A DNA stretch of 64,000 nucleotides, taken from contig CAVSHO010000010.1 in the NCBI GenBank assembly GCA_963727825.1, positions 160,001 to 224,000 of the forward strand, written 5' to 3'. The notes below the pieces were generated by a model that did no database searches, had not been told where the DNA came from, and was given only the letters and a program-made list of their open reading frames with translations. This DNA is from Ignavibacteriota bacterium (GTDB taxonomy: Bacteria > Bacteroidota > Ignavibacteria > UBA10030). The position numbers and the translations under genes were made by a program. Within the stretch, counting starts at the first letter, position 1. Each line of letters opens with the position of its first letter. Below, one piece after another: positions 33,688-53,526 of this stretch.

Positions 33688-34344
33688 TTGAAACCACTCC
33701 CCCGCTCTTTCTATCTTCGACCGACACTTCAAGTTGCCAGTGACCTTCTTGGCAAACACATCGTTAGGAAAGTGGGCAATAAATTACTGATTGGAAAAAT
33801 TGTTGAAGTTGAGGCTTACTGCAAAGGAGATCCGGCATCTCATGCATTTCACGGAAGAACAAAGCGTAACGACGTAATGTTTGGGGAAGGCGGGCATTTA
33901 TATGTCTATTTCACTTATGGTATGCATTTTTGTGCTAATGTAGTGACAGGAAAAGAAGGTATTGGAGAAGCGGTACTAATTCGTGCCGTAGAACCTTTAG
34001 TTGGAATTGAAGAGATGACAAAGAACCGCTTTCCTAATCTTTGCGCCGAGGGCGCATACGCCCGCCTGCCAAAGTGCAACGGCGGGCAGGCCTCTGGCGT
34101 AAAATCTTTCAATCTCAAAATCTTAATTAATCTCACCAACGGACCAGCAAAGTTTTGTCAAGCATTTAGCATTGTGCGCAAAGAAAATGGGACAGACTTA
34201 CTCGATAGCGAAATCTGTATCACCGATGGTGAAACCATTCTTTCAAATCTCATTAAGCGTTCTTCGCGAATTGGAATTCAACAAGGTGTAGAAAAGAAGT
34301 GGAGATTTTTTATTGCGGAAAATCCGTGGGTTTCAAGAAAATAA
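33688..34344 (+). CDS. mpg: DNA-3-methyladenine glycosylase (MPG/AAG family)
   Basis: IVEVEAY, DPASHA, YVYFTYGMH, AVLIRA, NGPAK and RIGI motifs. Confidence 0.93.
   Translation: MKPLPRSFYLRPTLQVASDLLGKHIVRKVGNKLLIGKIVEVEAYCKGDPASHAFHGRTKRNDVMFGEGGHLYVYFTYGMHFCANVVTGKEGIGEAVLIRAVEPLVGIEEMTKNRFPNLCAEGAYARLPKCNGGQASGVKSFNLKILINLTNGPAKFCQAFSIVRKENGTDLLDSEICITDGETILSNLIKRSSRIGIQQGVEKKWRFFIAENPWVSRK
34042..34101. repeat. Family A element (30 bp) with nested family B element (30 bp), in-frame inside mpg
   Basis: TGCGCCGAGGGCGCATACG[CCCGCCTGCC-N10-GGCGGGCAGG]CCTCTGGCGTA; 60 bp encoding CAEGAYARLPKCNGGQASGV. Confidence 0.8.
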
Positions 34345-34359
34345 AATCCTTACACTTAA

Positions 34360-34583
34360 GTTGGGAGGGAGTTATACTCCCGACCAACGAACTACTTTGA
34401 GTGTTTAGTTCGGGAGAACATCTCCCTCACAGCGAGGCTTTTACATAGTCTTTTGCGTCCTGACCGATATTATTGAATGTCAGGAATCCCGCTTTGCCTG
34501 CCCGCAGCGGGCGGGCGGGACTGACATCACTAATCAACATCTCCCTTACAACCTCTCCGAACGCTTGAAGCGGTCGGAGAGGT
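34360..34583. repeat. Cluster of REP-like palindromes in the mpg/uvrA convergent gap
   Basis: Inverted GGGAG..CTCCCGA / TCGGGAG..CTCCC doublet (34360-34430); TCCCGC-TTT-GCGGGA with nested CCTGCCCGC-A-GCGGGCGGG (34497-34515); ACCTCTCCGA/TCGGAGAGGT (34551-34583). Confidence 0.7.
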
Positions 34584-37492
34584 CACAATTCCTTCTTCAA
34601 ATACTCGCCCGTGTACGATCGTTGATTCATCGCCACTTCTTCCGGTGTTCCTTCAGCAACAATCTCACCCCCTTCATCTCCGCCATTGGGTCCTAAATCA
34701 ATAACCCAGTCCGCGGTTTTGATGACATCGAGATTGTGTTCGATAACGATGACAGTGTTTCCTTTATCAACCAATCTGTTCAACACGAGAAGCAACATAC
34801 GAATATCTTCAAAATGCAAACCCGTTGTCGGTTCATCGAGAATGTATAATGTTTTACCGGTACCGATTTTCGAAAGTTCAGTTGAGAGCTTCACACGCTG
34901 CGCTTCGCCGCCGGAAAGTGTCGTAGCTTGCTGACCCAAACGGATGTAACCCATTCCGACATCATGCAGCGTTTGCAAATGCCGATGAATACGCGGCAGC
35001 TCGCTGAACTGTTCCATCGCTTCATCAACTGTCATATTCAACACATCGGCAATCGATTTTCCTTTGTAGTGCACTTCAAGCGTTTCGCGGTTGTATCTTT
35101 TGCCGTTGCAAACATCGCAATGCACATAAACATCCGGCAAAAAATTCATTTCAATTTTTCTAACTCCATCTCCTTCGCAATTCTCGCAACGCCCGCCTTT
35201 AACATTGAAGCTGAAGCGTCCAGCTTTGTAACCGCGAATCTGTGCCTCGGGCAATTGCGTGAATAAATCCCGTATAAGCGTAAATAGTCCTGTGTAAGTT
35301 GCAGGATTTGATCGCGGCGTTCTGCCGATAGGCGATTGGTCTATATCTATGACTTTATCAATGTGCTGCAATCCATCTATAGATTTATAAGGAAGCGAAA
35401 CAAGTTTCGTCTTGTAAAACTTACGCGAAAGAATCGGATAAAGAGTTTCATTGATAAGAGTAGATTTACCAGAACCACTCACGCCGGTAATACATACGAA
35501 TTTTGCAAGCGGTATTTGCAGAGAAATATTCTTTAGATTGTTGCCCGATGCTCCTTTTATGAGGAGAAACTTTCCATTCCCCCGCCGTCGTTTTTTAGGA
35601 ATTTCGATCTTGTGTTCACCACGAAGATATGCAGCAGTTAAAGATTGCGGATGAGGAATTGGGGATTGGGGATTAGTAATTTGCGATGTGGAACTCGACT
35701 TTAAATTCTTTTTTCTTATCCCATTTTTCATTTTTAATTGATTCGGCGTTCCAGTCACCACAACATACCCGCCATGTTCACCTGCACGCGGCCCCAGGTC
35801 AACAACATAATCAGCGCTTTCAATCATCTCTTTGTCATGTTCGACGACGATGACAGTGTTGCCGAGATTACGGAGTGATTTGAGAGAATCAATCAGCTTG
35901 ATATTATCGCGCTGATGCAAGCCAATGCTCGGCTCATCTAAAATGTAAAGCACGCCGACGAGCTGCGTCCCAATTTGCGTCGCAAGACGAATACGCTGAC
36001 CTTCACCGCCAGCGAGTGTCCGCGCAACACGATTGAGCGTAAGATAACTCAGACCAACATTCAACAGAAATTCTAATCGTTGGCGTATTTCTTTCAATAC
36101 TTGATGAGCAATTTCTTCATCGCGTGAACTGAGCGCAAGGTTATCAAAGAATTGTTTGGCTTGTGAGATGGAGAGACTCACCACATCGTGAATATTAGTT
36201 TGCTTGCCTGTTTTTGAATCTTCTAACCGGATAGAAAGACTTTCCTTGCGCAACCGGCCACCTTTGCATACCTCGCAAGGATTTGTTGCCATAAATGATT
36301 CCACCCAATCGCGCACTTGATTAGAAGATGTGTCTTCGTACCAGCGATCTAACATCTTGAGAAGACCTTCGAAGCGGTGTTTGTAGATTTGCACGCGTCC
36401 GGTTTTATCGTGCGTGTATTCAATTTCCAATTTCTCGCCGTGCGATCCATAGAATAGAACATCGCGCGCTTCAGTGGAAATATTTTTTATAGGCGTATCG
36501 AAATCGAAATTATATTTCTTTGCCACAGCGTTAATCTGACTGAACATCCAAGTCTGACGCGGCTTGCCCATCGGAGCAAGTCCTTCTTGATTGATAGATA
36601 GATCTTCATTGGGAATAATTAATTTCATATCGAACGAACGCAGTTCGCCAAGTCCTTCACACTTTGGGCAATATCCTGCGGGCGTGTTGAATGAAAACGA
36701 GCTCGGCGCCGGTTCTTCATAACTGATTCCGCATTCATGGCATGAAGATTTTTGACTGAACAGCTGGTCCTTTTCGCCATCATTGACAATCAGAACTCCT
36801 TCGCCATAACGCAGTGCCATCTCGACTGAATCGGCAATGCGCGAACGCATTTCCTTTTTTAATACAATTCTGTCAACGACAATTTCAATCGTATGAATTT
36901 TATAGCGGTCGACTTTCATTCCTTTTTCAATTTGTCGTACTTCGTCATCAATCCGAACGCGGAGAAATCCATCTTTAATAATGCGCTCGAATAATTCCCG
37001 ATAATGCCCCTTGCGACCTTTAACGATAGGCGCTAGAATCTGTAGCTTCGAACCATTCGGATAATTAAGAATAGTTTCAATGATTTGGTCAACCGATTGT
37101 CGCTGGACTTTGCGGCCGCAGTTATAGCAGAATTGCGTCCCGACACGTGCGAAGAGTAGACGAAGGTAATCGTAGATTTCTGTAACAGTGCCAACGGTCG
37201 AGCGAGGATTGGTGCTGATTGTTCTTTGTTCAATAGAGATGGACGGACTCAGCCCCTCGATGAGATCAACATCGGGACGTTCCATTACGTCAAGAAATTG
37301 GCGCGCGTATGCAGAAAGACTTTCAACATATCGCCGTTGTCCCTCGGCATAGATTGTATCGAACGCTAAGCTCGATTTCCCCGATCCGGAAAGGCCTGTG
37401 ATAACAGTCAATGAATCGCGAGGAATATCAACATCGATATTCTTTAAATTGTGGACGCGTGCACCGCGAACTATGATTTTGTCTTCAGCCAA
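34583..37492 (-). CDS. uvrA: Excinuclease ABC subunit A
   Basis: GARVHNLKN, two Walker A motifs (GLSGSGKSS, GVSGSGKST), zinc fingers, LSGGEAQR and LDEPTTGLH. Confidence 0.98.
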   Translation of the reverse strand: MAEDKIIVRGARVHNLKNIDVDIPRDSLTVITGLSGSGKSSLAFDTIYAEGQRRYVESLSAYARQFLDVMERPDVDLIEGLSPSISIEQRTISTNPRSTVGTVTEIYDYLRLLFARVGTQFCYNCGRKVQRQSVDQIIETILNYPNGSKLQILAPIVKGRKGHYRELFERIIKDGFLRVRIDDEVRQIEKGMKVDRYKIHTIEIVVDRIVLKKEMRSRIADSVEMALRYGEGVLIVNDGEKDQLFSQKSSCHECGISYEEPAPSSFSFNTPAGYCPKCEGLGELRSFDMKLIIPNEDLSINQEGLAPMGKPRQTWMFSQINAVAKKYNFDFDTPIKNISTEARDVLFYGSHGEKLEIEYTHDKTGRVQIYKHRFEGLLKMLDRWYEDTSSNQVRDWVESFMATNPCEVCKGGRLRKESLSIRLEDSKTGKQTNIHDVVSLSISQAKQFFDNLALSSRDEEIAHQVLKEIRQRLEFLLNVGLSYLTLNRVARTLAGGEGQRIRLATQIGTQLVGVLYILDEPSIGLHQRDNIKLIDSLKSLRNLGNTVIVVEHDKEMIESADYVVDLGPRAGEHGGYVVVTGTPNQLKMKNGIRKKNLKSSSTSQITNPQSPIPHPQSLTAAYLRGEHKIEIPKKRRRGNGKFLLIKGASGNNLKNISLQIPLAKFVCITGVSGSGKSTLINETLYPILSRKFYKTKLVSLPYKSIDGLQHIDKVIDIDQSPIGRTPRSNPATYTGLFTLIRDLFTQLPEAQIRGYKAGRFSFNVKGGRCENCEGDGVRKIEMNFLPDVYVHCDVCNGKRYNRETLEVHYKGKSIADVLNMTVDEAMEQFSELPRIHRHLQTLHDVGMGYIRLGQQATTLSGGEAQRVKLSTELSKIGTGKTLYILDEPTTGLHFEDIRMLLLVLNRLVDKGNTVIVIEHNLDVIKTADWVIDLGPNGGDEGGEIVAEGTPEEVAMNQRSYTGEYLKKEL

Positions 37493-37598
37493 GATATAAT
37501 AAATAAGGATTGGGGATTAATATGATTTGTTGATTTTCAGACAAACAGACATATAAAAATCTCATTTACTCACATACTCACAGACTCTATGACTTCAC

Positions 37599-38495
37599 TC
37601 AATTCATTCTTTTTCGCTTATTTAAATATTCAAACAGAGCCTTGTCGAAAGGAGTGCTCGTATCCAACAGAACATAGTCAATGCTATTGTCGCGACATTG
37701 CCGCTTGTAGAAATCGAGAAACTCTTGCATCGACTGTTGATACGCTTTCTGAATGTGCCACGGTTGTGTCATTAATTCTTCCTGAGTCTCTAAGTCCTTG
37801 AAGATTGCATCTCCGTCAAACGCAAACGATCTCTCCAGCGGATCCAATATTTGCATCACGACAACTTCATGTCCTTTGTGTCGAAAATGTTTTAATGCTG
37901 TCATCACTGATTCCGGTGTATCAAATAGATCACTTAAGACGATAACGAGTCCGCGCCGCTTAATTTGTTCAGCAATAAGATTTAACGATGCCGACGTTCC
38001 AGTTTTATTTTCCGGTTGAGCCGATTCTAATTCTTTCAGAATTTCTTTTAGATACGAGCGTGTGGCACGCGGAGGCAATGAAACGCGAACCCCTTCATCA
38101 AATAATGTCAAGCCCACTGCATCGCGTTGTTCTATCATTAAAAATGATAAAGCAGCAGCAACATACGAGGCATATTCAAACTTTTTTAGATTCCCCTTTG
38201 ATGCATAATCCATCGATCGGCTCACATCAACGATCAGATATGATTTAAGATTTGTCTCTTCCTCAAATTGTTTAATGTAGAAACGGTCGGTTTTTCCGTA
38301 CGCCTTCCAATCGATGTGTTTGATTTCATCACCCGGCATATATTGGCGATGTTCGGTGAATTCAACACTGAAGCCGTGATACGGACTTTTATGCAATCCA
38401 GTGATAAATCCTTCCACCACTAAACGCGCACGCAATTCCATATTCGCAAGCTGGGCAACAACGGCGGGCTGGAGATATTTTAATGATTCGTTCAA
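37599..38495 (-). CDS. DUF58 family (vWA-like, MoxR-associated) protein
   Basis: GLHKSPYHGFSVEF.EHRQY.PGD...IDWK, DVSRSM and SDL motifs. Confidence 0.9.
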   Translation of the reverse strand: MNESLKYLQPAVVAQLANMELRARLVVEGFITGLHKSPYHGFSVEFTEHRQYMPGDEIKHIDWKAYGKTDRFYIKQFEEETNLKSYLIVDVSRSMDYASKGNLKKFEYASYVAAALSFLMIEQRDAVGLTLFDEGVRVSLPPRATRSYLKEILKELESAQPENKTGTSASLNLIAEQIKRRGLVIVLSDLFDTPESVMTALKHFRHKGHEVVVMQILDPLERSFAFDGDAIFKDLETQEELMTQPWHIQKAYQQSMQEFLDFYKRQCRDNSIDYVLLDTSTPFDKALFEYLNKRKRMN

Positions 38496-38576
38496 AACAG
38501 TTTTCAGTTCTCGGCAACCATTTTTTCAATGGATATAAGCTCTGACTAACCTAACTCCTCAATTGCTCAACTACTT

Positions 38577-38627
38577 TACGCCAAAGGTGCATCCCCGCCC
38601 GTCCAACAGGCGGGCACCTATGACGGA
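38577..38627. repeat. Degenerate family A element with nested 21-bp family B element
   Basis: TACGCC-AAA-GGTGCA-TC[CCCGCCCGT-CCA-ACAGGCGGG]CACC-TAT-GACGGA. Confidence 0.7.
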
Positions 38628-38637
38628 AAAGACTCTT

Positions 38638-39156
38638 TTACTTCTTCTTCACCTTCTTTACCGGTTTCGTTTCTTCTTGCGCTATCTGTGTTTGCGCTTT
38701 CAAAATTTCTGCCGGATCTTTTCCGAGATTATTTAGTTCAAACTTGACTGATTCTACCAGCCGGTTTGTAGGATATTTTTTAAGAAAGTCTTCATAAGCG
38801 ATCCGTGCTGAATCGATATTCTTTAATTCATTGTTGTAAACGAATCCTATGAGAAACGATGCATGAGACGCAGTAGCATGATTCGGATATTTTTCTACAA
38901 GGAAGCGAAATGTCTGAATTGCTTGATGATATGAACGTTTATAATTCTGATAAATTATTCCGATAGCATAAACTGCTTCCGGTGTACGAGCGCTGTCAGG
39001 ATAAACTTTGACCAATTCTTGATACGAAGCTATCGCCGCGTCATATTGTTCTGCTTTCTGTGCGTCTACACCTTGATTGAACAACTCTTCCGCGCTGGGT
39101 TTGGAACAACCTATGAGAGTGAGGACAAGGAATATTGAAATTAAATAAGACCTCAT
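38638..39156 (-). CDS. TPR-repeat lipoprotein (BamD/CpoB-like)
   Basis: Lipobox LIGC; three TPR-like units ending in YP.S/N. Confidence 0.85.
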   Translation of the reverse strand: MRSYLISIFLVLTLIGCSKPSAEELFNQGVDAQKAEQYDAAIASYQELVKVYPDSARTPEAVYAIGIIYQNYKRSYHQAIQTFRFLVEKYPNHATASHASFLIGFVYNNELKNIDSARIAYEDFLKKYPTNRLVESVKFELNNLGKDPAEILKAQTQIAQEETKPVKKVKKK

Positions 39157-39293
39157 TGCAGAATCCTTTCTTCTAAGGTACGGAGAATAACTTATATCAA
39201 TCTGTTCTAAGCATTCAATAATTAATTTCATCAGATAACTGAACACTGACGATTAATAGCTATTTTTAAAAGTATTAAAACATCTCTGGAGAA

Positions 39294-40628
39294 TCAACGA
39301 ATGGTATTCTTTTCAAGAATAGCGCAAAAGAAACCATCAGTTCCATTAATATGAGGAAAAAGTTTAAAGAATGTTCCTGCTGTAATCAATTCATTATGCC
39401 ATTTTTCTAATAATCTATTTGCCTCGACCAAACTAAAATCAGGATGTCGCACTATAAATTCTTCCACTACATCTTCATTCTCTTGACTTAGTAATGTGCA
39501 CGTCGCATACGCTATTCTTCCCCCTGGTTTCACAAGCGGTGCAGAGGAACAGAGAATAGATTTTTGCTTATCCGACACTTCATTAACTGTCTGTTCCGTA
39601 ACCATCCATTTCATTCCGGGATTACGGCGAATAGTGCCAAGTCCGCTGCAAGGCGCATCTACAAAAACTATGTCAAAGAAGTTGGAAAATTGTTTAGCCA
39701 AATCTTCAATTGCCTGAATTTCTTGGACACGAATATTCTGCGCTCCGGCACGCTTTATACGTTTGCGTAATTCCTCAAGACGGTAACTATTGATATCTGT
39801 AGCAAAGATTTCTCCACGATTCTTCATCAGTGCGGCAAACTCCAGCGTCTTACCTCCGGCGCCCGCGCATACGTCGAGTAATTTCGCATTCGGTTTCGGA
39901 TCGATGAGAAATGGCAGTAACTGACTTCCCTCATCTTGCACTTCAAACCAGCCATCTTGGAATATTGGAAGAGAAAATACATTTATGCGTTTTGAAAGAT
40001 TCAAACCAAATGGTGACAATGCCGTGCTGGTTGTCTCAATTCCCTGCTTGTTCAATTCGGCCTGACATTGTTCAACAGTCGTCTTCAATGTATTAACACG
40101 CAATGTGATTGGGGCTTGTTCATTAAGACTTGCACATATATTTTCAGCTTCACTCTCATCGTACTGCTCAAATAATTTCTGCACCATCCAATCCGGGAAG
40201 GAATGCTCAATTCCTATTCGTACAACAGCAGATTCGGACGGAATTGTTACCGGTTTCGTAAATATATTTAAAACATGTGCCATCTTTTCTGCAAGCTGTG
40301 TGCTCTTGAGTTTTGATGAGACATCCTCTGGAGCTACATTCTGTATCTTTCCCTGCAAAGATAAATATGCAACAACGAGAAAAAGAGTTTTATCTTCTTC
40401 AAGTAATGCCTCGTTCAATTCAGTCATTGTTGAAGCTACCATTAGTTCGCATTTCCGCAAATGGCGCAAAGTACCGTACATCGTCTCTGCAATAAACTTC
40501 CTGTCATGAGAACCGAGATACTTGTGCGACCGAAAAAATGTATCTATGAGTGCGTCTGCGGGTTTCTTTGAATTCAGAACAATACCGAGCAATTCCTGTG
40601 CATGCCCGATAAGTGATGTCATTTGCAT
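39294..40628 (-). CDS. RsmB/NOP-family RNA cytosine-C5 methyltransferase
   Basis: LRVNTLK, VQDEGSQ, DVCAGAGGKT, VDAPCSG and ATCT motifs. Confidence 0.93.
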   Translation of the reverse strand: MQMTSLIGHAQELLGIVLNSKKPADALIDTFFRSHKYLGSHDRKFIAETMYGTLRHLRKCELMVASTMTELNEALLEEDKTLFLVVAYLSLQGKIQNVAPEDVSSKLKSTQLAEKMAHVLNIFTKPVTIPSESAVVRIGIEHSFPDWMVQKLFEQYDESEAENICASLNEQAPITLRVNTLKTTVEQCQAELNKQGIETTSTALSPFGLNLSKRINVFSLPIFQDGWFEVQDEGSQLLPFLIDPKPNAKLLDVCAGAGGKTLEFAALMKNRGEIFATDINSYRLEELRKRIKRAGAQNIRVQEIQAIEDLAKQFSNFFDIVFVDAPCSGLGTIRRNPGMKWMVTEQTVNEVSDKQKSILCSSAPLVKPGGRIAYATCTLLSQENEDVVEEFIVRHPDFSLVEANRLLEKWHNELITAGTFFKLFPHINGTDGFFCAILEKNTIR

Positions 40629-40904
40629 AGTTTTTCCAGCCAACCCGATTTTTCTGCGTAACCCATTTGTATTATTATCTTCATTTCACTTATAAGATAC
40701 ATCTTTTTGTCAATGGATGCGTGCTTCTTTAGACATTAAGTCATAAAGAAGATTTGTTTGATTTGCTTATTGTTAACCACAAGATCAAATTCATCTAGGG
40801 GTATAAAAAATCCTTCCCCAGTAACAATCTGAAGAAGGATATAAAATATTGAGTCCAGTCTAAATAATTATTTCGATTTCAATTCACCGGGCTTTTTCAG
40901 TGCA

Positions 40905-41219
40905 TTATTTTTTTACGCTGTCGACTTTCGCTTTTTCATTTGTTTTTGTTTCTTCCGCTTTCACTTTCGCCTTTGCTTTTACTCCTTCCGCCTTCACTTT
41001 CACCTTTGTTTTTACCCCTTCCGTTTTCACTTCAGTTGTATCTTTTGCGGTTGTCACTTTTGCCTCCGTCTTGATCCCTTCCTCTTTCACTTTTGACTTT
41101 GTTTTTACTTTTTCTATTTTTGTTTTAAGCGTATCTTTTACTGTTGACGCCCGCATTTGTGTGAAAACTAATCCCGCAACAAAGAAACAGAGACTGAATA
41201 ACACGAGTATTCTTTTCAT
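40905..41219 (-). CDS. Small exported Lys-rich low-complexity protein
   Basis: AAGGAG RBS, signal peptide MKRILVLFSLCFFVAG, KVKxEG repeats; terminator-like hairpin near 40805-40840. Confidence 0.75.
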   Translation of the reverse strand: MKRILVLFSLCFFVAGLVFTQMRASTVKDTLKTKIEKVKTKSKVKEEGIKTEAKVTTAKDTTEVKTEGVKTKVKVKAEGVKAKAKVKAEETKTNEKAKVDSVKK

Positions 41220-41344
41220 TTTATTTCTCCTTTGTTGTTGATAGATAGAATTATTTGAATTACTACGTGAATGTTGTAATTATTTTATCAAAACTCAATT
41301 AGTATTATATAAGTACCTTGAAAATGTCCAATAAATAGAAATAT

Positions 41345-44143: not shown

Positions 44144-44216
44144 TGTTGTTTCGCTCTACTTTGCACCGGTTCTTGAGGTTTAATTGTAAATTTATTGAAG
44201 TTCATATGTTCCTCTT

Positions 44217-44477: not shown

Positions 44478-44493
44478 TATCTTTCTCTTTATA

Positions 44494-44580: not shown

Positions 44581-44601
44581 AATAAATCAATTATTAAATA
44601 T

Positions 44602-44627
44602 AAAAGGCGAGTTTTTATCTCGCCTTT
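44602..44627 (-). terminator. Intrinsic terminator after dnaK
   Basis: Minus strand AAAGGCGAG-ataaaaa-CTCGCCTTTT. Confidence 0.6.
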
Positions 44628-44707
44628 CGTTAGTACATCAGATTGGTGAGTATTCACCATACCATCTGTTCTTTTACTCAACTACTTAATACTTCATACT
44701 CATCGAC

Positions 44708-46678
44708 TTACTTATCATCAACAACCTCGAAGTCGGCGTTTTCCACTTTCTTGCCGCCTTGATCGCCACCTTGTTGTTGCTGCGGACCGGCTTGTTCAGC
44801 ACCCGGTTGACCGCCTGCGAACGGACCCTGTTGCTGCCCACCTGCACCAGGAGCTTGCTGTGCTTTTGCCGATTCGTACATCTTTGTCGATGCTTCATTC
44901 CAGGCATTGTTGAGTGCTTCTGTCTTCGCCTTAATATCTGCGGGATTGTTGCCCTTAATTGCTTCTTCAAGAGCATTTGCCGCCGCTTCGACCTTAGACT
45001 TAGTGTCTGCGTTCATCTTATCGCCAAGATCTTTTAACTGCTTTCGCGTTTGGAAGACGAGATTATCCGCTTGATTTTTTGTCTCAATTTCCTCTTTCCG
45101 TTTTTTATCTTCCGCAGCATGCGCCGTCGCATCTGTTTTCATTTTCTCTACTTCTTCTTTGCTCAATCCGCTGGAAGAAGTAATACGAATGGATTGCTCT
45201 TTATTTGTTGCCTTGTCTTTTGCAGAGACGTGCAGCATTCCATTGGCATCGATATCAAACGTAACTTCGATCTGAGGAACACCGCGCGGTGCAGGCGGAA
45301 TACCATCTAAATGAAATTGACCGAGCGTGCGGTTATCTAAAGCCATCGGGCGTTCACCCTGCAAAACATGAATTTCTACGGATGGCTGGCTATCCGATGC
45401 GGTAGAAAATATTTCACTTTTCTTTGTCGGAATGGTTGTGTTCGCTTGAATCATCTGTGTCATCACACCGCCGAGTGTTTCAATTCCAAGGGTTAATGGA
45501 GTAACATCCAGCAAGAGCACATCTGTCACATCTCCGGAAAGTACGCCGCCCTGAATCGCTGCACCTACCGCTACAACTTCATCCGGATTGACTCCTTTAT
45601 GTCCTTCTTTTCCAAATATATCTTTTACCAACTGCTGAACACGCGGCATACGCGTCATTCCACCTACGAGAATAATCTCATCAATTTGATTCGGATTTAA
45701 TCCAGAATCCTTCAATGCTTTTTCTACCGGCGGCATACAACGTTGTACTAAATCTTCCACAAGTTGCTCCAATTTCGCCCGCGTGAGCGTCATGTTCAAG
45801 TGCTTCGGGCCATCTGCTGTTGCTGTAATGAACGGAAGATTAATCTCTGTCTGCAATAACTGCGACAACTCCATCTTTGCTTTTTCCGCTGCTTCACGTA
45901 AACGCTGAAGTGCCATCGGATCTTTGCGAAGGTCTATACTTTCTGTTTTCTTGAATTCATCTGCTATGTAGTCAAGTACACGCATATCAAAATTATCGCC
46001 GCCAAGGTGTGTATCACCGTTAGTGGATTTTACTTCGAACACGCCTTCACCTAATTCAAGCACGGAAATATCAAATGTTCCGCCGCCAAGATCGAATACC
46101 GCAACTTTAGAATCTTTATGTTTCTTATCCAAACCATAAGCCAGTGCCGCCGCTGTCGGTTCGTTAATAATACGCCGAACATTAAGGCCAGCTATTTCAC
46201 CGGCTTCTTTTGTTGCCTGTCGCTGTGCATCGTTGAAGTATGCAGGCACGGTAATGACTGCTTCAGTGATTTTTGTACCAAGATAATCTTCTGCCGTCTG
46301 TTTCATTTTTTGAAGAATCATCGAAGATATTTCCGAAGGTGAATAGACACGATCACCTATTTTCACACGTGCTGTGTTGTTTTCGCCTTGCACCACATTG
46401 TAGGGAACAAGTTTCATTTCTTCATTTACTTCATTATAGAACCGTCCCATAAAACGTTTAATGGAAAAGACAGTGTTTTGTGAATTCGTCACCGCTTGAC
46501 GCTTTGCAGCCGCTCCAACCAGTCGCTCGCCTGACTTTGTAAATCCGACTACAGATGGTGTAGTGCGTGAGCCTTCTGAGTTTGCGATGACAACTGGGTC
46601 ATTGCCTTCCATCACAGCAACACACGAGTTTGTAGTTCCCAGGTCGATACCAATAATTTTTCCTGTATTTTTTGACAT
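44708..46678 (-). CDS. dnaK: Chaperone DnaK (Hsp70)
   Basis: [32 protein letters not shown] and [11 protein letters not shown] motifs. Confidence 0.99.
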
Positions 46679-46821
46679 TGTAAAACTCCTTTACTTTCGC
46701 GGCTTGTATACCGCTGATATGTGGATTGATGCACCAACGGGCCGGGATTGATCCACTTCAAACCCGACCCTAATGGCGCGTTGATCGATCAATGGAGGAA
46801 TTTCATTCATCCACTATGTTG

Positions 46822-47286
46822 TTACTTCACTTTAACTTCTATTTGTTTCGGTTTCGCTTCTTCTGCTTTCGGCAATGCCACCGTCAAGATGCCATCTTTG
46901 TAAGAAGCATCGATCTTGTCAGCTTTTACTGCAGCCGGAAGTGTGAAAGATCGTTGGAAAGAACCATAGCTCCGCTCGACGCGGTGATAATTCTCTTTCT
47001 TCGTTTCCTTCTCTTGTTTCTTCTCGCCACGAATCGTCAGGATGTTATTCTCAAGCGTGAGTTTCACTTCATCCTTATTGACTCCGGGCAATTCTACCTT
47101 CACCAAATATTCATCGTCATGTTCGGCAATATCGACTGCCGGCGTCCACGATGAGATTGCATAATCTTCATCGTTTGTGCCGCGGAAGAAACCATCGAAC
47201 ATCCGGTTCATTTCCCTCTGAATCCCAAACAGATCAGAGGGCCAAGTCGCTAATTCGCGAGCTGGATTCCATCGTACGAGTGACAT
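46822..47286 (-). CDS. Small heat shock protein (Hsp20)
   Basis: PAVDI.E, ELPG, ERSYGSFQRSF and ASYKDGILT motifs. Confidence 0.96.
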   Translation of the reverse strand: MSLVRWNPARELATWPSDLFGIQREMNRMFDGFFRGTNDEDYAISSWTPAVDIAEHDDEYLVKVELPGVNKDEVKLTLENNILTIRGEKKQEKETKKENYHRVERSYGSFQRSFTLPAAVKADKIDASYKDGILTVALPKAEEAKPKQIEVKVK

Positions 47287-47314
47287 ACGTCTACCCTCCT
47301 TTAAGATTGTTTAT

Positions 47315-47725
47315 TTAGTTAATTGAAATTTCCCTTGCCTTCACCGCTTCGGTTTTCGGCAAGGTGATTGTTAAAATGCCATTACTCATTTCTGCGGATA
47401 TCTTTGCTGAATTTATTTCATATCCTAGCCGCACAGAACGATCGAAACTCTCAGATTGAGTTTCTTTCAGAAGAACTTTCGCCTTTTCAGACAACTCAAC
47501 AGGTTTTCGTTCTCCACTAATCGCTAATACATTCTTCTCAAATGTAATCTTCACATCTTCCTTCTTCATGCCGGGCAATTCTGCACTGACAACGATCTCA
47601 TTTTCTTGTTCGATAATATCGAGCGCCGGAAATTCTGTCCGAACCGGTAATCTATCGGTTGCAAGGAAATCATTCATTAGACTGTCGCATTCACAAGTTC
47701 TAGGATAATCAAATCGTACTAACAT
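47315..47725 (-). CDS. Small heat shock protein (Hsp20)
   Basis: PALDI.E, AELPG and AEMSNGILTITLPK motifs. Confidence 0.92.
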   Translation of the reverse strand: MLVRFDYPRTCECDSLMNDFLATDRLPVRTEFPALDIIEQENEIVVSAELPGMKKEDVKITFEKNVLAISGERKPVELSEKAKVLLKETQSESFDRSVRLGYEINSAKISAEMSNGILTITLPKTEAVKAREISIN

Positions 47726-47768
47726 TGTTGTATCTCCTTTTTAGATTTTAATTTGTTACTATAAATAA

Positions 47769-47784
47769 ATCAATAGGCGTGCCA
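47769..47784 (-). promoter_or_regulatory. Putative sigma54 (-24/-12) promoter of hsp20-hsp20-dnaK
   Basis: TGGCACG-CCTA-TTGAT versus consensus TGGCACG-N4-TTGC; inverted repeat TTGGCAG-N5-CTGCCAA at 47844-47862 upstream. Confidence 0.65.
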
Positions 47785-48054
47785 AATAGAAAAGTGCGGA
47801 TTACGACTGGTTTTTAGAGGATGAAAATCTTCGTCTCAGCATTTTGGCAGTTTATCTGCCAATGTTTCCGATAACTCAATCCTATTGTGGCAGAATTATA
47901 GGAAGAAACGGCAGAAGGAAATGATAAGAAGAACAAAAGAGTAGCTCATAGGATATGATGAAAGAAAGATTGATGGTTAGAAATTTCCGAGTCACTTGTT
48001 ATGGCAATGGCAAAAGTTTGAAGATATTCCTGCAATAGAGACCTTCAATTTTTA

Positions 48055-48074
48055 CCCGCCGTCTTTTTGGCGGG
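48055..48074. repeat. Family B-like palindrome
   Basis: CCCGCC-GTCTTTTT-GGCGGG in AT-rich intergenic DNA. Confidence 0.5.
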
Positions 48075-48260
48075 GAACGTCTATACAATATGCTATGCTA
48101 TCATTTCCCGCGCTTTCCTTGATATTCGTTTTGCAACTTCGTACGTTTCTTTTGCTACTGAAAACAGAAATTCAAACTACTTTCACTTTAGTAGCAGCTA
48201 AGAGGAATTTGATTTCTATAAGTTTTGTAAGAATTATTAATAAATGATAGGAATAGCTAT

Positions 48261-48893
48261 ATGAATTTTTCAACAATACAACGATGGGGCGGAATTGCAA
48301 TAATACTTGGTTCAATATTTCTTACTGCCTGGGCAATATGTTGGACAACTCTTTTACCAGTGAACGAACGAGCCAGGGATATATCTCTCATGATTTCAAA
48401 TCCTAACTGGATATGGATTTCTTCATTAGCTTATCCAGGAACTCTTTTCATGATTTTTGGTTTTACAGCGGTTTATGCAAGACTCTACAATAAAGCTGGA
48501 GTTCTCGGTTTTATCGGCTATGTATTTATTATTCTCGCATACATTTTTCAAGCAGCAAAGATTACGTGGGAAATTTTCATTTATCCAATTATAGTGGGAT
48601 ATGAGCCCTCTATTGCATTGTTCAGGGATAGAATATTGTTGCAGCATCCTCAGTTCATTTTATTCAGATTGTTTGCAAGTATAACTATTTTTGTTGGTGT
48701 TATTCTTCTTTGCATTATGTTGATAAGAAGCCGTGAGTTTCCGAAAAGCGCAGGGATTCTGATTTTTTGCGGCGCAATAATTTATGCTGTTGGCCCATTG
48801 ATCAACATCTATTTGGCTATTGCAGGAGTTGTAATACTTTCTATTGGATGTTTTATCTTGGGATACAAAATGCTTTTCAATGTGATGGAATAA
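48261..48893 (+). CDS. Hypothetical integral membrane protein
   Basis: 210 aa with about 6 hydrophobic segments. Confidence 0.8.
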   Translation: MNFSTIQRWGGIAIILGSIFLTAWAICWTTLLPVNERARDISLMISNPNWIWISSLAYPGTLFMIFGFTAVYARLYNKAGVLGFIGYVFIILAYIFQAAKITWEIFIYPIIVGYEPSIALFRDRILLQHPQFILFRLFASITIFVGVILLCIMLIRSREFPKSAGILIFCGAIIYAVGPLINIYLAIAGVVILSIGCFILGYKMLFNVME

Positions 48894-48907
48894 TGGATTT
48901 GATAGTG

Positions 48908-48931
48908 GTGTCAGGAATTATTTCCTGACAC
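48908..48931. repeat. GTGTCAGGA..TCCTGACAC palindrome, copy 1
   Basis: GTGTCAGGAA-ttat-TTCCTGACAC; second copy at 61667. Confidence 0.7.
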
Positions 48932-48954
48932 TAAACTTTCAATGTGATTGAACA

Positions 48955-49770
48955 ATGACAATACATAAAGAATTTGTAGAAAATATTATAGAAAAAGTTA
49001 AATCCGATCCAACTATTGTGGGATTAGCTATCGGTGGTTCTTGGATTGATAATCAAATTGACGAATTCTCTGATCTTGATTTCATATTAATTACAGATCA
49101 GCTCGTTTCTGATGACTTCAACAAAATGTATAACTATGCCAAACAATTCGGCAGTCTCTTGAATGCATTTACCGGCGAACACATTGGAGAAAAAAGATTG
49201 CTCATATGTATGTACGATAATCCGCTGATTCATGTTGATATAAAATTTATTCTGATAGAAGATTTAAAGCACCGAGTAGAAGATCCCATTATTTTATGGG
49301 ATAGAGATGGATCGGTTAAAAGGATTATAGAAACCTCAACTTCGGAATGGCCAACAGTAAATTTTCAATGGATTGAAGACCGGTTCTGGACATGGATTCA
49401 TTATACTGCATCAAAACTTGGAAGGGGCGAATATTATGAGGCTCTCGATTGTCTTTCATTTTTAAGAATGAATGTGCTATCTCCGCTTTTGCAAATAAAA
49501 AACAGGCAGAAGCCGCGCGGACTTCGGAAAATAGAGCGAACATGCCGCAAAGAAGATCTTCTGAAATTGCAGGAGACGGTTTCCACATATTCAGCGGAAT
49601 CTATTGCTCTTTCTTTGGAGAAGGCGATAAAATTGTATCGAGAACTGAGAAAAGAACTCTTCAAAGACAATATTATTCTCCGTAAGGATACAGAAAAAAT
49701 ATGCATTGATTATTTTGATAAGATTAAAAAAAGACGCACACCCCTCCGGTTTGCGATTAAATCGAAATAA
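48955..49770 (+). CDS. Pol-beta superfamily nucleotidyltransferase (aminoglycoside/lincosamide adenylyltransferase-like)
   Basis: GGS......DEFSDLDF motif and VDIKF; helical C-domain with RGEYYEA. Confidence 0.75.
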   Translation: MTIHKEFVENIIEKVKSDPTIVGLAIGGSWIDNQIDEFSDLDFILITDQLVSDDFNKMYNYAKQFGSLLNAFTGEHIGEKRLLICMYDNPLIHVDIKFILIEDLKHRVEDPIILWDRDGSVKRIIETSTSEWPTVNFQWIEDRFWTWIHYTASKLGRGEYYEALDCLSFLRMNVLSPLLQIKNRQKPRGLRKIERTCRKEDLLKLQETVSTYSAESIALSLEKAIKLYRELRKELFKDNIILRKDTEKICIDYFDKIKKRRTPLRFAIKSK

Positions 49771-49870
49771 TAGTACTATTTTCTAAAGCAATCCCCTGCC
49801 ACAATACTTTGAGGCAAGCAACCAAGTGCTTGCCCTTTCCGATGAGATTGAATTCTATACAGGATAGTAA

Positions 49871-52800
49871 ATGATAGAAACATACATCAAGAAAGTAGCA
49901 TCCAGCACTGCTCAAGGCGATGCCCGCGAAGAAAGTTATTATGGAAATTTCTCCAACTTTCTCGAATCCTTCGCTGAGGAAACAGGCAAAAAGCGTATTC
50001 AAATCACCACCCTCCCTAAAAAGACCGAAGCTGGTAACCCTGATTTCCGTGTGTGGGATGGCAGGCAGCAAATCGTTGGGTACATCGAAGCGAAGAAGCC
50101 GGGAGAGAATCTCGATCTCATCGAAGATTCCGAACAACTGAAACGCTACCGCGCCACCTTTCCTAATCTTATCCTCACCGATTTTTACGAATTCCGGTTA
50201 TATCGCAACGGCGAATTGTTCGATAAAGTTCTTCTTGCCAGGCCGTTTATTGCCAAAAAACTCAAAACGGTGCCGCCGGTTGAACACAAAGAGAAGTTTA
50301 TTACGCTTCTGGAAAAATTCTTTTCCTTCTCTCTTCCAAAAGTCTTTACGGCAGAAAATCTTGCTGTAGAGCTGGCAAAGCGCACCGGTTTTTTACGCGA
50401 TGAAGTAGTCGTCAAAGAACTGGAAGAAGCAGAACACGGTAAAGGAAAAACTTTCGGCTTCTATACTGCCTTCAAACAATATCTCGTTTCCGATCTTTCA
50501 CCGAAAGATTTTGCGGACATCTATTCGCAAACCATTACTTACGGATTGTTCGCCGCACGAACGCGTGCAACCGGAGAGTTCAACCGAAAATTAGCGTATG
50601 ATCTTATTCCCAAAACCATCGGCATTCTGCGGGACGTGTTTAGGTTCATTTCTCTCGACAAATTGCCGCCGCAAATGGAAGTGATCATTGATGACATTGC
50701 CGAAGTACTTCAAGCGGCCGATGTGAACAAAATATTAGACGAATATTATCGAAAAGGAAAAGGCGAAGACCCGATTGTCCATTTCTACGAGACCTTTTTG
50801 AATATCTACGATCCCGGCACGCGCGAGAAACGCGGCGTGTATTACACGCCGGAGCCGGTTGTGAAATATATTGTCCGCGCCATTCATGATTTGCTTAAAA
50901 CGCATTTCCATTTGCAGGACGGACTTGCAAACAAGGAAGTGACCCTGCTTGATCCGGCCGGCGGAACGCTCACATTCCCCGCGGAAGCGATTAAGTTAGC
51001 GGTGGAAGAGTACACCACAAAATATGGTGACGCGGGAAAAACCAAACTGATTAAAAACCAGATTCTTAAAAACTTTTATGCGTTCGAGCTGATGATGGCT
51101 CCTTATGCCATCGGGCATATTAAAATTAGTTTCTTACTGGAAGAACTCGGCTACACAATGCAAGAAGACGACCGCTTTAAGCTCTACCTAACCAACACGC
51201 TGGATATGGAAGATTTAAAGCAAACTGAAATTCCCGGACTTGAATCCCTAAGCGATGAAAACCACCTTGCCGGACAGATAAAACAAAAAGAGCCGATACT
51301 TGTTATTCTCGGCAATCCTCCATACAGTGGACACTCCGCAAACAAAAATGATTGGACAGAAAAACTATTAAAAGAAGATATTGACGGGGCAACAGGATAT
51401 TATACGGTCGATGGACAACCGCTTGGAGAGAAAAATCCCAAATGGCTGCAAGATGATTATGTAAAGTTTCTGCGCTTTGCTCAATGGAAGATTCATAAAG
51501 CCGGGCAAGGTATCGTGGGAATGATTACTAATCACAGTTATCTGGATAATCCCACGTTTCGCGGAATGCGTCAGAGTTTAATGAACACATATAACGAGAT
51601 TTATATTGTTGATCTGCATGGCAATTCTTTGAAGAAAGAAACAACTCCAGACGGTGGTAAAGATGAAAATGTTTTTGATATTCGTCAGGGAACAGCAATT
51701 GCGGTTTTTGCAAAGATAAAGAATACAAAAGGATGTAAAGTCTATCAACGTGATATTTTTGGTTTAAGAGAAGAAAAATACGATTGGCTTGAAAAGAAAC
51801 CGTTTAAGAAAAAAGACTATGAAGTATTAGACCCAATAATACCATGGTATTTTTTGACGCAAAGTAATACAGAAGAGATTGAATACTATAATCGTTGGTG
51901 GAAAGTCAATGACATATTCCCGATTAACAGTGTTGGGATTGTCACAGCAAGAGATGATTTTGCTATTTCATTTAATAAAGAAGCCCTTGAAGGCAGAATA
52001 AGACAATTCAGGAACCTAAAATTTGATTTAGAGTTTCTTAAAAGTGCTTACAATCTGAAAAGTTCGGGGACGTGGGATATAAGTAATGCAAGGGAAGAAT
52101 TAGCAAAAGACAACAATTATGATGAACATTATCATAAAATTCTCTATCGTCCTTTTGATAATCGTTTGATCTACTATTGCGAGACAATAATTGAAAGAAT
52201 GCGATTTGATATAATGCAGCATATGCTTAAACCAAACATTTCACTTTGTTTTGTTCGGCAATATTCAGGTGATTCGCCTTATTCTCATGCATTAGTCTCC
52301 GAGAGTATGATCGATAATAGAACATTCTTTAGTAGTAAAGGAATCATACAGCAAGCACCTCTTTATCTCTACGAAACCGAGAAAGCAAAAAAGCGCGCCG
52401 CACTTTCCACGATGATGCTGTTTGATAACGTGGTAGAATACGGAAAAGCGAAAGGAAAGAAAGCGAACATTGCGCCGAAAGTGTTTGAGCAATTGGAGAA
52501 AGCGTACGGCAAGGTCCCAACGCCGGAACAAATCCTCGGTTACTGTTATGCCGTTTTATACAGCAATGCTTACCGCGAAAAGTTTGCGGAGTTTTTGAAG
52601 ATCGATTTTCCGCGCATACCATTTACAAAGAATTATGATCTCTTTAAAGAAATGTCCAAACTTGGCGAAGAGCTGATCGAATTACATCTATTGAAACACA
52701 AAGCTCTGAACAAGCCCATCCTCAAATATTTCGGCAAAGGAAAAGACGATACCATCGTCAAGCCGCGCTATGATGAAGAACGAGAATACGTGTTCATCAA

Positions 52801-53017
52801 CGATCAAAAATGGTTCGAAAATGTTTCTGTCGAAGTGTGGAACTACCAAATCGGCGGGTATCAGGTGATGGAAAAATATCTCAAAGACCGCAAAGGCAGA
52901 CAAATGGAAGATTCAGGACATTACTGCCGGATGGGAACTTCCATTGCCAAGACTATCGAGGTGCAGAAGGAAATCGATAAACTATTCCCGAGAGTTGAGA
53001 AAAAAGTGATAACATAG
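49871..53017 (+). CDS. Single-polypeptide restriction-modification enzyme (Type IIG-like, N6-adenine MTase, Type ISP-like C-terminus, no helicase)
   Basis: N-terminal PD...IEAK nuclease motif, GVYYTP, LDPAGGT, GNPPY, YRPFD, DFPRIP and IGGYQV. Confidence 0.9.
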   Translation: MIETYIKKVASSTAQGDAREESYYGNFSNFLESFAEETGKKRIQITTLPKKTEAGNPDFRVWDGRQQIVGYIEAKKPGENLDLIEDSEQLKRYRATFPNLILTDFYEFRLYRNGELFDKVLLARPFIAKKLKTVPPVEHKEKFITLLEKFFSFSLPKVFTAENLAVELAKRTGFLRDEVVVKELEEAEHGKGKTFGFYTAFKQYLVSDLSPKDFADIYSQTITYGLFAARTRATGEFNRKLAYDLIPKTIGILRDVFRFISLDKLPPQMEVIIDDIAEVLQAADVNKILDEYYRKGKGEDPIVHFYETFLNIYDPGTREKRGVYYTPEPVVKYIVRAIHDLLKTHFHLQDGLANKEVTLLDPAGGTLTFPAEAIKLAVEEYTTKYGDAGKTKLIKNQILKNFYAFELMMAPYAIGHIKISFLLEELGYTMQEDDRFKLYLTNTLDMEDLKQTEIPGLESLSDENHLAGQIKQKEPILVILGNPPYSGHSANKNDWTEKLLKEDIDGATGYYTVDGQPLGEKNPKWLQDDYVKFLRFAQWKIHKAGQGIVGMITNHSYLDNPTFRGMRQSLMNTYNEIYIVDLHGNSLKKETTPDGGKDENVFDIRQGTAIAVFAKIKNTKGCKVYQRDIFGLREEKYDWLEKKPFKKKDYEVLDPIIPWYFLTQSNTEEIEYYNRWWKVNDIFPINSVGIVTARDDFAISFNKEALEGRIRQFRNLKFDLEFLKSAYNLKSSGTWDISNAREELAKDNNYDEHYHKILYRPFDNRLIYYCETIIERMRFDIMQHMLKPNISLCFVRQYSGDSPYSHALVSESMIDNRTFFSSKGIIQQAPLYLYETEKAKKRAALSTMMLFDNVVEYGKAKGKKANIAPKVFEQLEKAYGKVPTPEQILGYCYAVLYSNAYREKFAEFLKIDFPRIPFTKNYDLFKEMSKLGEELIELHLLKHKALNKPILKYFGKGKDDTIVKPRYDEEREYVFINDQKWFENVSVEVWNYQIGGYQVMEKYLKDRKGRQMEDSGHYCRMGTSIAKTIEVQKEIDKLFPRVEKKVIT

Positions 53018-53023
53018 AAATTG

Positions 53024-53083
53024 GACCTCCCCTAAATCCCCTCCTCGTATGAGGAGGGGAAAACGCCGAAGGCGTAGGGGTGG
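53024..53083. repeat. REP-like palindrome upstream of the DUF559 gene
   Basis: GACCTCCCCTAAA-TCCCCTCCTC-gtat-GAGGAGGGGA, followed by ACGCC-GAA-GGCGT. Confidence 0.7.
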
Positions 53084-53094
53084 TGGACAAAACT

Positions 53095-53526
53095 ATGGCT
53101 GAACACTACAATAAACCGATCATGAAACGGCGACGGAAAGTTTTAAGAAGAAATCTCTCCAAAGCTGAAACCATAATATGGAAACATCTCTCGCACCGAC
53201 AGATGCACGGTTGTAAATTTCGCCGCCAATATAGCGTTGACCAATATGTTATAGATTTCTACTGTCCGGAATTCAAAATTGCCATTGAAATCGATGGCGA
53301 TTCACATTTCAAAACAGGTGCGGAAGATTACGATAAAGCAAGGCAGGAATACATCGAATCATTTGGTATACAGTTTCTCCCTGCCTCGCCGGCAGGCGGG
53401 CGTTTTACTAATGAAGATGTATGTAAAAATATAAATGGTGTGTGTCAGAAAATATATGAAAAAATCGAGGTGCGGAAGGAAATCGATAAACTTTTTCCTA
53501 AAGTGGAAAAGAAAGTTATTGGATAG
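53095..53526 (+). CDS. DUF559/Vsr-like PD-(D/E)xK endonuclease domain protein
   Basis: LRRN.S.AE..IW, KFRRQY, YVIDFYC, IEIDGDSH, YD..R and RFTN motifs; ATG at 53095. Confidence 0.88.
   Translation: MAEHYNKPIMKRRRKVLRRNLSKAETIIWKHLSHRQMHGCKFRRQYSVDQYVIDFYCPEFKIAIEIDGDSHFKTGAEDYDKARQEYIESFGIQFLPASPAGGRFTNEDVCKNINGVCQKIYEKIEVRKEIDKLFPKVEKKVIG
53380..53400. repeat. 21-bp family B element in-frame in the DUF559 gene
   Basis: CCTGCCTCGCCGGCAGGCGGG (PASPAGG) splits the GIQFL|RFTN motif. Confidence 0.75.

Follow-up and report, generated by a model that had tools for sequence, protein, structure and literature searches.

The window analysed here is a 64,000-nucleotide stretch (G000:C10:160001-224000) of an Ignavibacteriota bacterium genome (G000; 3.12 Mb, 41% G+C, 14 contigs, designated C1, C7, C10 and so on), and our subject is family B, a group of short GC-rich palindromes with CC...GG ends that occurs five times in this window, twice within genes and three times between them. 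Copy 1 (34061..34090) measures 30 bp, with 10-nt arms around the centre AAAGTGCAAC (CCCGCCTGCC-AAAGTGCAAC-GGCGGGCAGG), and lies within mpg, the methylpurine-DNA glycosylase gene (33688..34344, forward strand; Pfam PF02245, E 2e-62), where together with two small host hairpins it makes up a composite in-frame insert of 63 bp, or 21 codons (34042..34104, forward strand). Copy 5 (53380..53400, forward strand; 21 bp, CCTGCCTCGCCGGCAGGCGGG), which is the 20-mer discussed below plus one base, is read in frame as PASPAGG within a gene for a DUF559 (Vsr-like) endonuclease (53080..53526, forward strand; Pfam PF04480, E 7e-28). Among the intergenic copies, copy 2 (34497..34519) lies between mpg and uvrA and reads CCTGCCCGC-A-GCGGGCGGG, that is, 19 bp to 34515 followed by an extra CGGG unit to 34519, all carried by a 47-nt composite hairpin, GTCAGGAATCCCGCTTTG ... 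GGGACTGAC (34479..34525); copy 3 (38594..38614; 21 bp) is a CCCGCC-N9-GGCGGG stem-loop with a DNA fold of -6.3 kcal/mol; and copy 4 (48055..48074; 20 bp) reads CCCGCC-GTCTTTTT-GGCGGG, with a GTCTT-type centre of which the same type recurs in at least three other genomic contexts. These coordinates and lengths agree with those of an earlier, sequence-only reading of this DNA, as do its observations that both genic copies have lengths divisible by 3 (30 and 21 bp, both in frame) and that the 19- and 20-bp copies (copies 2 and 4) lie outside genes.

A genome-wide search with the pattern CCYGCC-N(0-24)-GGCRGG gave 81 overlapping matches, which merge into 67 loci measuring 12-38 nt, with 14 inside long open reading frames (ORFs) and 53 outside. 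The count is well above random expectation, since three 3rd-order Markov simulations yielded 6, 5 and 1 matches; the reversed pattern gave 2, and the other three arm orientations 11, 9 and 6. When all hexamer/reverse-complement pairs at most 24 nt apart were scanned, observed against expected, CCCGCC..GGCGGG (27 vs 1.3 expected) and CCTGCC..GGCAGG (26 vs 2.4 expected) stood among the most enriched hexamer hairpins, the all-G/C hexamer class being enriched merely 1.9-fold. Because the CCCCTC..GAGGGG, GGGAGT..ACTCCC, TCCCGC..GCGGGA and TCCCGA..TCGGGA hairpin families are equally enriched, B is one among several hairpin repeat families of this genome; the most numerous genome-wide are TCCCGA..TCGGGA (52 vs 3.3 expected) and TCCCGC..GCGGGA (43 vs 2.7).

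The description of B as a single family with conserved ends stands for the ends, which are common to the copies, but the family is heterogeneous and comprises several subfamilies. Its arms are made up of CCYG units, and its members range from simple CCCGCC-loop-GGCGGG stem-loops through 19-mers that read CCCGCCTGC-N-GCGGGCAGG and a perfect 20-mer to 30-36-mers, with 19 (17 matches) and then 20 (9 matches) as the commonest match lengths genome-wide. As read from the sequences, CCCG and CCTG units swap places between one arm and the other in the 19-mers and in the 30-mer, such that the full stem contains one C·A and one T·G position and two alternative perfect 5-bp hairpins are possible; single-stranded DNA folds of the copies range from -5.9 to -10.2 kcal/mol.

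Filled and empty sites

For each locus, 30 nt from either side were joined by script and searched against the genome, and an uninterrupted paralogous site was found for 13 of the 67 loci. Filled and empty versions were compared base by base in four cases. The filled site at C11:81663 has an empty counterpart at C11:3121-3159 (aligned flanks 39/39 identical), and that at C12:53403, with a 35-nt element, has one 120 bp upstream (38/38 identical); in the CCCCTCCTC hairpin family, four copies are filled and at least five are empty. The fourth case is an intact tRNA-Leu(CAG) gene at G000:C9:167302-167386 (aragorn), which is preceded by two tandem 346-bp units, each consisting of the first 32 nt of tRNA-Leu and a small GIY-YIG ORF, where in both tRNA fragments the perfect 20-mer stands between ...ttggcaga and cgcgctagc..., sequences that are joined in the intact gene. 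At all four junctions the insert spans exactly CC to GG and target duplication is absent, bearing out what had been supposed from the window copies: family B inserts as exact CC...GG units without target-site duplication.

Comparison between organisms points the same way. The 63-bp mpg insert is absent in 13 of 13 full-length orthologs (15-row alignment, in which one further row ends before the site), the nearest of which read KNRF(P/S)NLQS... at this position, and the mpg-uvrA spacer measures 238 nt here against about 40 nt, free of these hairpins, in relatives L003, L006 and L007. Strain variation was followed in Logan contigs (best run, 0.41 of sampled words; other runs, ≤0.18), where four runs yielded related organisms without the mpg insert and the hairpin-filled spacer; an X3 contig, also from a related organism, spans the mpg site without the insert. 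Empty sites thus exist within the genome, at tRNA-Leu and among orthologs. A genome-wide search for an autonomous parent, with B left and right arms 0.5-3 kb apart, gave no convincing pair, and solitary B arms were mostly ordinary coding sequence, with a few decayed B copies.

In genes, the inserts coincide with alignment gaps. PASPAGG in the DUF559 gene corresponds to a 7-residue gap in three same-genome paralogs, NLPAGKA in a histidine kinase (C12:13266) to a 7-residue gap in CckA (5idm), and ARLPDGQ in a GH43 xylosidase (C9:432952) to one in 8hcj. Each of the four genic B units that were verified measures either 21 or 30 nt, and not 19 or 20 as is commonest genome-wide, and two of the genic 21-mers are the 20-mer plus one base. 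Genome-wide, lengths divisible by 3 occur at 8 of 14 long-ORF loci vs 13 of 53 others (one-sided Fisher p=0.024), although the long-ORF set is noisy, as it takes in two native matches (glutamate dehydrogenase, or GDH, and QueA), one match upstream of a gene in an open frame, and four ambiguous matches, C7:77913, C7:130087, C7:138603 and C9:188516. The frame bias proposed from the two window copies is present in every verified genic insert; selection against frameshifts predicts lengths in multiples of three, and no special mechanism is needed.

It had further been proposed that B targets other palindromes, and that three of the window copies interrupt a hairpin that is restored on their removal. 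Within this genome a local tendency of this kind is seen: with B removed, the joined flanks fold at ≤-6 kcal/mol at 22 of 67 loci (33%) vs 6.4% of 1000 random controls, the host types including the CTCTCCGA, AACCTTGTCAAGG and CCCCTCCTC families, a GTAG-tagged hairpin near an IS200-like gene, attC-like repeats of C11, and tRNA arms. For the individual window copies the proposal fares unevenly. Removal of copy 1 does restore TACGCC-TCT-GGCGTA, and removal of copy 2 would give TCCCG-CTTTG-CGGGA, but the genome search showed no empty version of the 47-nt unit that carries copy 2, all four copies of which are 47 nt long and filled, with variable centres; the host stem of copy 3 is merely 4-5 bp, and the joined flanks of copy 4 fold weakly (-1.9 kcal/mol). 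Nor does targeting extend to a rule elsewhere, as at 151 distinct sites of the 20-mer in other organisms the flanks pair at chance level beyond the first base, with no signal other than A in 40% and T in 9% of cases at position -1 (background for T ~26%) and an A|T pair at 36 of 151. A preference for the 3' loop edge, which seemed to hold within this genome, was dropped, as 19-mers from metagenomes occupy both edges.

Some copies have spread as passengers of larger repeats that they had entered. A ~190-bp transposable element of the miniature inverted-repeat kind (MITE), with ends tatcccaaa...tttgggata, is present in six copies (G000:C1:256440, C7:89254, C9:36566, C9:311219, C9:928969 and C11:58595), each with the same B 19-mer after GTAGAGTC, and the mpg 30-mer recurs with the same flanks (atacg|...|cctctggcg) in the sister genome G006, where one further locus has an identical copy and another a near-identical one. 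Overall, B sits in intergenic DNA, in loops and stems of small repeats, in tRNA fragments, and in genes where its length is a multiple of three. 

Two hairpins of the window belong to families that are filled elsewhere: the unfilled CTCTCCGA..TCGGAGAG hairpin at 34552..34582 has relatives filled in the loop by a B element at G000:C1:246925 and C9:162288, and the unfilled CCCCTCCTC-N4-GAGGAGGGG hairpin at 53038..53059 has four relatives elsewhere in which the B 19-mer is present. The mpg-uvrA spacer (34345-34582) holds a row of four different hairpin elements, copy 2 among them. The DUF559 gene lies 3' of a Type ISP restriction-modification gene (49871-53017), with the hairpins CCCCTCCTC-GTAT-GAGGAGGGG and ACGCC-GAA-GGCGT between the two, and its end (53466-53526) is ~80% identical to the last ~60 bp of the Type ISP gene (52957-53017); it looks as if a DUF559 cassette had entered the 3' end of the Type ISP gene, with the replacement end kept. 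Elsewhere in the genome, G000:C11:1-100400 carries an extended series of repeat sites that end in ...gctcattccgtcagcttgagc, with variable central hairpins that are often B-like and some copies empty, which may be an integron-type attC array.

A 20-mer common to many phyla

Pattern matches were present in 40 of 41 related genomes, with counts of 0-174 that were mostly several-fold above control, and five of these genomes (G016, G029, G033, G037 and G038) had essentially none. The perfect 20-mer reaches much further. The pattern CCYGCCYGCCGGCRGGCRGG was found in 123 stretches in one of the 64 parts of a species-genome collection, for an estimate of ~18,000 in all, and a single T/A variant, CCTGCCTGCCGGCAGGCAGG, made up 114 of 125 matches to this pattern. 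Its sources include Patescibacteria, Bacteroidota, Omnitrophota, Planctomycetota, Proteobacteria and others, with loci mostly of 0.3-0.5 G+C, and composition cannot explain its dominance because the all-T/A variant would be the rarest of 16 in G+C-rich DNA. The 20-mer also occurs in 40 stretches of viral contigs, with up to 6 per contig. The 20-mer CCTGCCTGCCGGCAGGCAGG is thus common, unchanged, to many phyla and viral contigs. For the 19-mer pattern we estimate ~2,300 metagenome stretches, with 1 viral match.

ORFs with Pfam matches to ribosomal protein S6, FtsK, ScpB and GatB span the position of the 20-mer, which would make these putative insertions. In other organisms and viral contigs, part of which were read by eye, the 20-mer often interrupts short tandem repeats with 6-9-nt units (L095, L103, L148, L161, L171, L186 and L188), and the same is seen here at G000:C9:26049. 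We note by eye that its first 8 and last 5 bases equal the anticodon stem and loop start of tRNA-Asp (CCTGCCTG...GCAGG; G000:C11:153720-153795), which may be coincidence or a clue to its origin. The exact 20-mer string had no occurrence in the searchable literature collection, where searches for GC-rich in-frame palindromes, or for GIY-YIG with tRNA palindromes, turned up papers on REP, HIP1 and mitochondria alone.

Candidate enzymes and rival explanations

Three enzyme families were considered as partners of B. Of the 12 small GIY-YIG genes, 4, at 3 independent loci, have a B element no more than 300 bp away, on one side only, where we would expect ~0.2 by our own estimate from the density of B (67 loci per 3.12 Mb); among DUF559 genes the same holds for 1 of 7 (the gene that contains copy 5), and among Y1 genes for 1 of 9. 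A tRNA gene lies within 1 kb of B at 6 of 67 loci, compared with 2.6% of controls. The small GIY-YIG genes themselves (~85-130 aa) adjoin tRNA genes, each with a partial tRNA copy interrupted by short hairpins, at G000:C9:166609-167386 (tRNA-Leu, tandem duplicate), C7:94237-94815, C10:75173, C11:153940, C12:40098, C8:159700, C13:67535 and C1:4299, and in the relative G002 at least 13 tRNA/GIY-YIG units of this kind form an array at ~300-bp spacing. The nearest Protein Data Bank (PDB) entries to the local nuclease are the UPF0213 proteins 1ywl and 1zg2; its only Pfam match is GIY-YIG, and NCBIfam gave nothing above cut-off.

Beyond this genome, the first 300 of 386 ORF fragments beside the 20-mer were scanned against Pfam, with 3 matches to GIY-YIG, the sole family to recur there without an obvious compositional explanation; Acyl_transf_1 appeared twice, at two G+C-rich actinobacterial loci that have the look of chance matches. 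A custom hidden Markov model (HMM) built from the GIY-YIG proteins of this genome matched at 5 of 123 20-mer loci and 1 of 40 viral loci. At five loci of other records (L054, L079, L132, L146 and L197) the 20-mer sits in a tRNA D-loop, and in L079, L146 and L197 a small GIY-YIG-type ORF comes after it with a few tRNA nucleotides in between, the arrangement of this genome, the visible part of the ORF in L146 being its first 11 residues; in L132 a GIY-YIG-type ORF lies upstream of the 20-mer. We consider the small tRNA-nested GIY-YIG nuclease (UPF0213/Ssn-like) to be the best candidate lead, and a weak one. Profiling did not single out any of the three families among the 41 related genomes, and each has its exceptions: uncorrected for kinship, Spearman correlations of gene-family counts with B excess were 0.45 for Y1_Tnp, 0.42 for GIY-YIG and 0.34 for DUF559, and 0.53, -0.07 and 0.28, respectively, within the genus (n=16).

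The first of the alternatives treats B copies as REP-type repeats whose mobiliser would be a Y1 (HUH) transposase of the RAYT/IS200 kind, with single-stranded hairpins as its substrate. In its favour, Y1_Tnp has 9 matches in the genome, the Y1 count shows the highest within-genus correlation given above, and the absence of target duplication fits the single-strand 'peel and paste' transposition, likewise without target duplication, of IS200/IS605 elements. Upstream of an intact IS200-like gene, at ~290 bp, a GTAG-tagged hairpin also carries one B copy in its loop, and 8 of 67 loci have GTAG at most 10 nt away, vs 1.8 expected; however, 6 of these 8 cases are copies of the one 190-bp MITE, and the tag is therefore not a feature of the family. 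At the 151 distinct 20-mer sites there is no conserved target tetranucleotide, and the RAYT-like genes are flanked by a different family, GGGAGT..ACTCCC, or by other hairpins at the 4 of 9 Y1 loci inspected. Counts in relatives also disagree with this explanation, as 28 B matches (vs 8 in the control) go with no Y1 match at all in G022, a single weak Y1 match goes with 51, 60 and 38 B matches in G007, G013 and G015, respectively, and G029, G037 and G038 have 5-6 Y1 matches with 0-3 B matches. There was no Y1_Tnp match among the 300 scanned ORF fragments beside the 20-mer. We regard mobilisation by Y1 transposases as unlikely.

It is less likely again that B copies are 'plugs', that is, filler that was captured, or templated, where site-specific nucleases (GIY-YIG, DUF559 or others) had broken the DNA, with their positions marking cleavage. 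The six independent tRNA contexts, namely that of this genome and the five loci named above, all have the 20-mer at the 3' end of the D-loop, and where a nuclease ORF follows, the 20-mer lies ~20-30 nt upstream of it; the absence of target duplication and the avoidance of T in the -1 flank (9% vs ~26% background) would also be in line with filling of a break. Against this, most sites are without a nearby nuclease gene, and we know of no pathway in bacteria by which breaks would receive a fixed 20-mer. Moreover, the identical sequence would still have to come from a donor copy and be transferred to each of the unrelated sites, so that the plug explanation is in practice a variant of mobility.

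That the DUF559 (Vsr-like) endonuclease is the partner of B seems very improbable. One B copy does lie inside the DUF559 gene of the window, and of the five B-poor relatives four (G016, G029, G033 and G037) have no DUF559 match and the fifth (G038) has one, but the DUF559 genes of this genome are flanked by CCCTCTCC..GGAGAGGG, CCCCTCCTC..GAGGAGGGG and TCCCCCT..GGGGGA hairpins rather than by B, G018 has 140 B matches vs 26 in the control and no DUF559 match, none of the 300 ORF fragments scanned beside the 20-mer matched DUF559, and its correlation with B excess over the 41 genomes is the weakest of the three. Least tenable of all is that B recurs by convergence and not by insertion, as motifs under selection for a function (in termination, RNA stabilisation or protein binding): the copies are stable DNA stem-loops (-6 to -10 kcal/mol) and 53 of 67 loci are outside long ORFs, but B also interrupts other repeats, is found in dead tRNA fragments and lies in frame within enzymes, there are exact pairs of filled and empty sites, the window copies, read directly, have no following T-run, an Rfam search of 33000-54500 gave no match at E≤1, and an identical 20-mer across phyla is not expected by convergence.

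Proposed mechanism and known repeat systems

Taking these points together, the explanation that we favour, with a probability of about 0.62, is that family B comprises related, gene-less, GC-rich palindromic insertion elements of 19-36 nt that are moved in trans as DNA hairpins. The idea of a mobile or inserted element, already put forward by the sequence-only reading, is supported by the filled/empty pairs, by in-frame inserts that orthologs lack, by the unrelated contexts, and by the occurrence of the 20-mer in many phyla and in viral contigs. In mechanistic terms, B would be recognised as a hairpin, and would enter DNA that is transiently single-stranded or broken, such as extruded hairpin loops, the D-arms of highly transcribed tRNA genes, and slipped tandem repeats. 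A nuclease specific for structure or sequence, with its gene elsewhere, would effect the movement in trans, frame-breaking copies in genes would be removed by selection, and spread from phylum to phylum may ride on nuclease cassettes and phages.

Several observations weigh against this explanation. Tests of Y1/HUH transposases, DUF559 and GIY-YIG nucleases demonstrated no mobilising enzyme, in agreement with the sequence-only reading. For the GIY-YIG lead in particular, ~96% of the sampled 20-mer loci have no GIY-YIG ORF within 200 bp, the hairpins in the tRNA fragments beside GIY-YIG genes of this genome are mostly of other types (e.g., TCCCGAC..GTCGGGA), the GIY-YIG count does not track B excess within the genus, and G002 has 25 GIY-YIG matches and 14 B matches. 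Many copies are amplified composites, and there are therefore fewer independent insertions than 67; the pattern also catches conserved native coding sequence, for which reason its matches in glutamate dehydrogenase (C8:120186) and QueA (C9:223366) were rejected as elements. Finally, same-strain presence/absence polymorphism was not seen in contigs that covered related organisms only, and in principle precise deletion could also give a filled/empty pair.

A bolder version of the favoured explanation would make the 20-mer and its 19-21-nt relatives a pan-bacterial hairpin 'micro-transposon', among the smallest mobile DNAs, moved in trans by tRNA-nested mini GIY-YIG nucleases, with the cleavage points (tRNA D-loops, hairpin loops and slipped repeats) as insertion sites and carriage between phyla by cassettes and phages. 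We offer this as a tentative possibility, and a rather doubtful one.

Among known systems, REP/REPIN sequences are dispersed, mostly extragenic, GC-rich imperfect palindromes of 20-40 nt with GTAG/CGTC tags, some copies of which lie in genes, often DNA-repair genes (Di Nocera et al. 2013, PMC3733652; Bertels and Rainey 2011, PMC3116915). B resembles REP/RAYT in its short palindrome, dispersal and extragenic bias, and in a presumed mobilisation in trans. The REP tag is not general in B, with GTAG at 8 and CGTC at 5 of 67 loci within 10 nt (1.8 and 1.7 expected), and whereas a RAYT gene is flanked by its own repeats, the Y1 loci inspected here (4 of 9) are flanked by GGGAGT..ACTCCC-type or other hairpins. 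REPs form doublets, in contrast to the mostly single units of B, and REP families are usually lineage-specific, in contrast to the one member of B that is identical across phyla. With IS200/IS605 elements B shares the lack of target duplication, but it has no fixed tetra- or pentanucleotide flank at the 151 20-mer sites. MITEs share inverted-repeat arms with B, whereas target-site duplication, a feature of MITEs, is absent at the pairs compared base by base.

The nearest functional analogy is offered by the Ssn GIY-YIG single-strand nucleases with their NTS/SRM hairpin repeats (Chenal et al. 2025, PMC11893778), where a small hairpin repeat, likewise in many copies, adjoins a small single-domain GIY-YIG gene, as B does at some such genes, and where recognition as single-stranded DNA is plausible for both systems. 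The repeats themselves differ, as the published degenerate SRM search sequence, including its upstream GTC tag, gave 8 hits in the genome vs 8 in the reversed control and overlapped 1 of 67 B loci, and no counterpart of the upstream orientation tag is conserved in B. Terms for tRNA and in-frame contexts, both of which B has, have 0 occurrences in PMC11893778. We also note a near-match to the Neisseria NTS consensus 5' of a GIY-YIG gene at G000:C7:171100-171500, with a related hairpin 3' of it.

RPEs are palindromic repeats of Rickettsia that lie in frame in genes which probably still function (Ogata 2002; Claverie and Ogata 2003, as described in PMC3733652). This in-frame habit is common to B, and lineage restriction separates RPEs from B, of which one member spans many phyla. 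RPEs are also ~100-150 bp long, several times the 19-36 nt of B. By description, the closest to B in size and nesting seem to be the SDRs of heterocyst-forming cyanobacteria, which Elhai and colleagues reportedly described in 2008 as 21-27-nt hairpins nested in each other and in mobile elements, with no enzyme, and reportedly for that one cyanobacterial group only. The earlier suggestion of an undescribed system thus holds in part: tiny size and cross-phylum identity are unusual, but tiny palindromic repeats that also lie in genes are known (REP, RPE, SDR). B belongs to an already known class of miniature palindromic repeats, from which its unusually small size and cross-phylum identity set it apart.

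If a 20-base palindrome is truly mobile across phyla, the lower size limit of mobile DNA falls, and there would be a widespread trans-acting machinery that recognises a bare hairpin. A nuclease specific for a defined 20-nt hairpin would be a possible tool, as proposed for Ssn enzymes (PMC11893778). For its hosts, B adds 7-residue loops to enzymes such as kinases and glycosidases and also affects repair enzymes, and it remodels other repeats and tRNA loci and inflates intergenic spacers; it can mislead gene calling and repeat annotation, and it marks protein loops that tolerate insertion.

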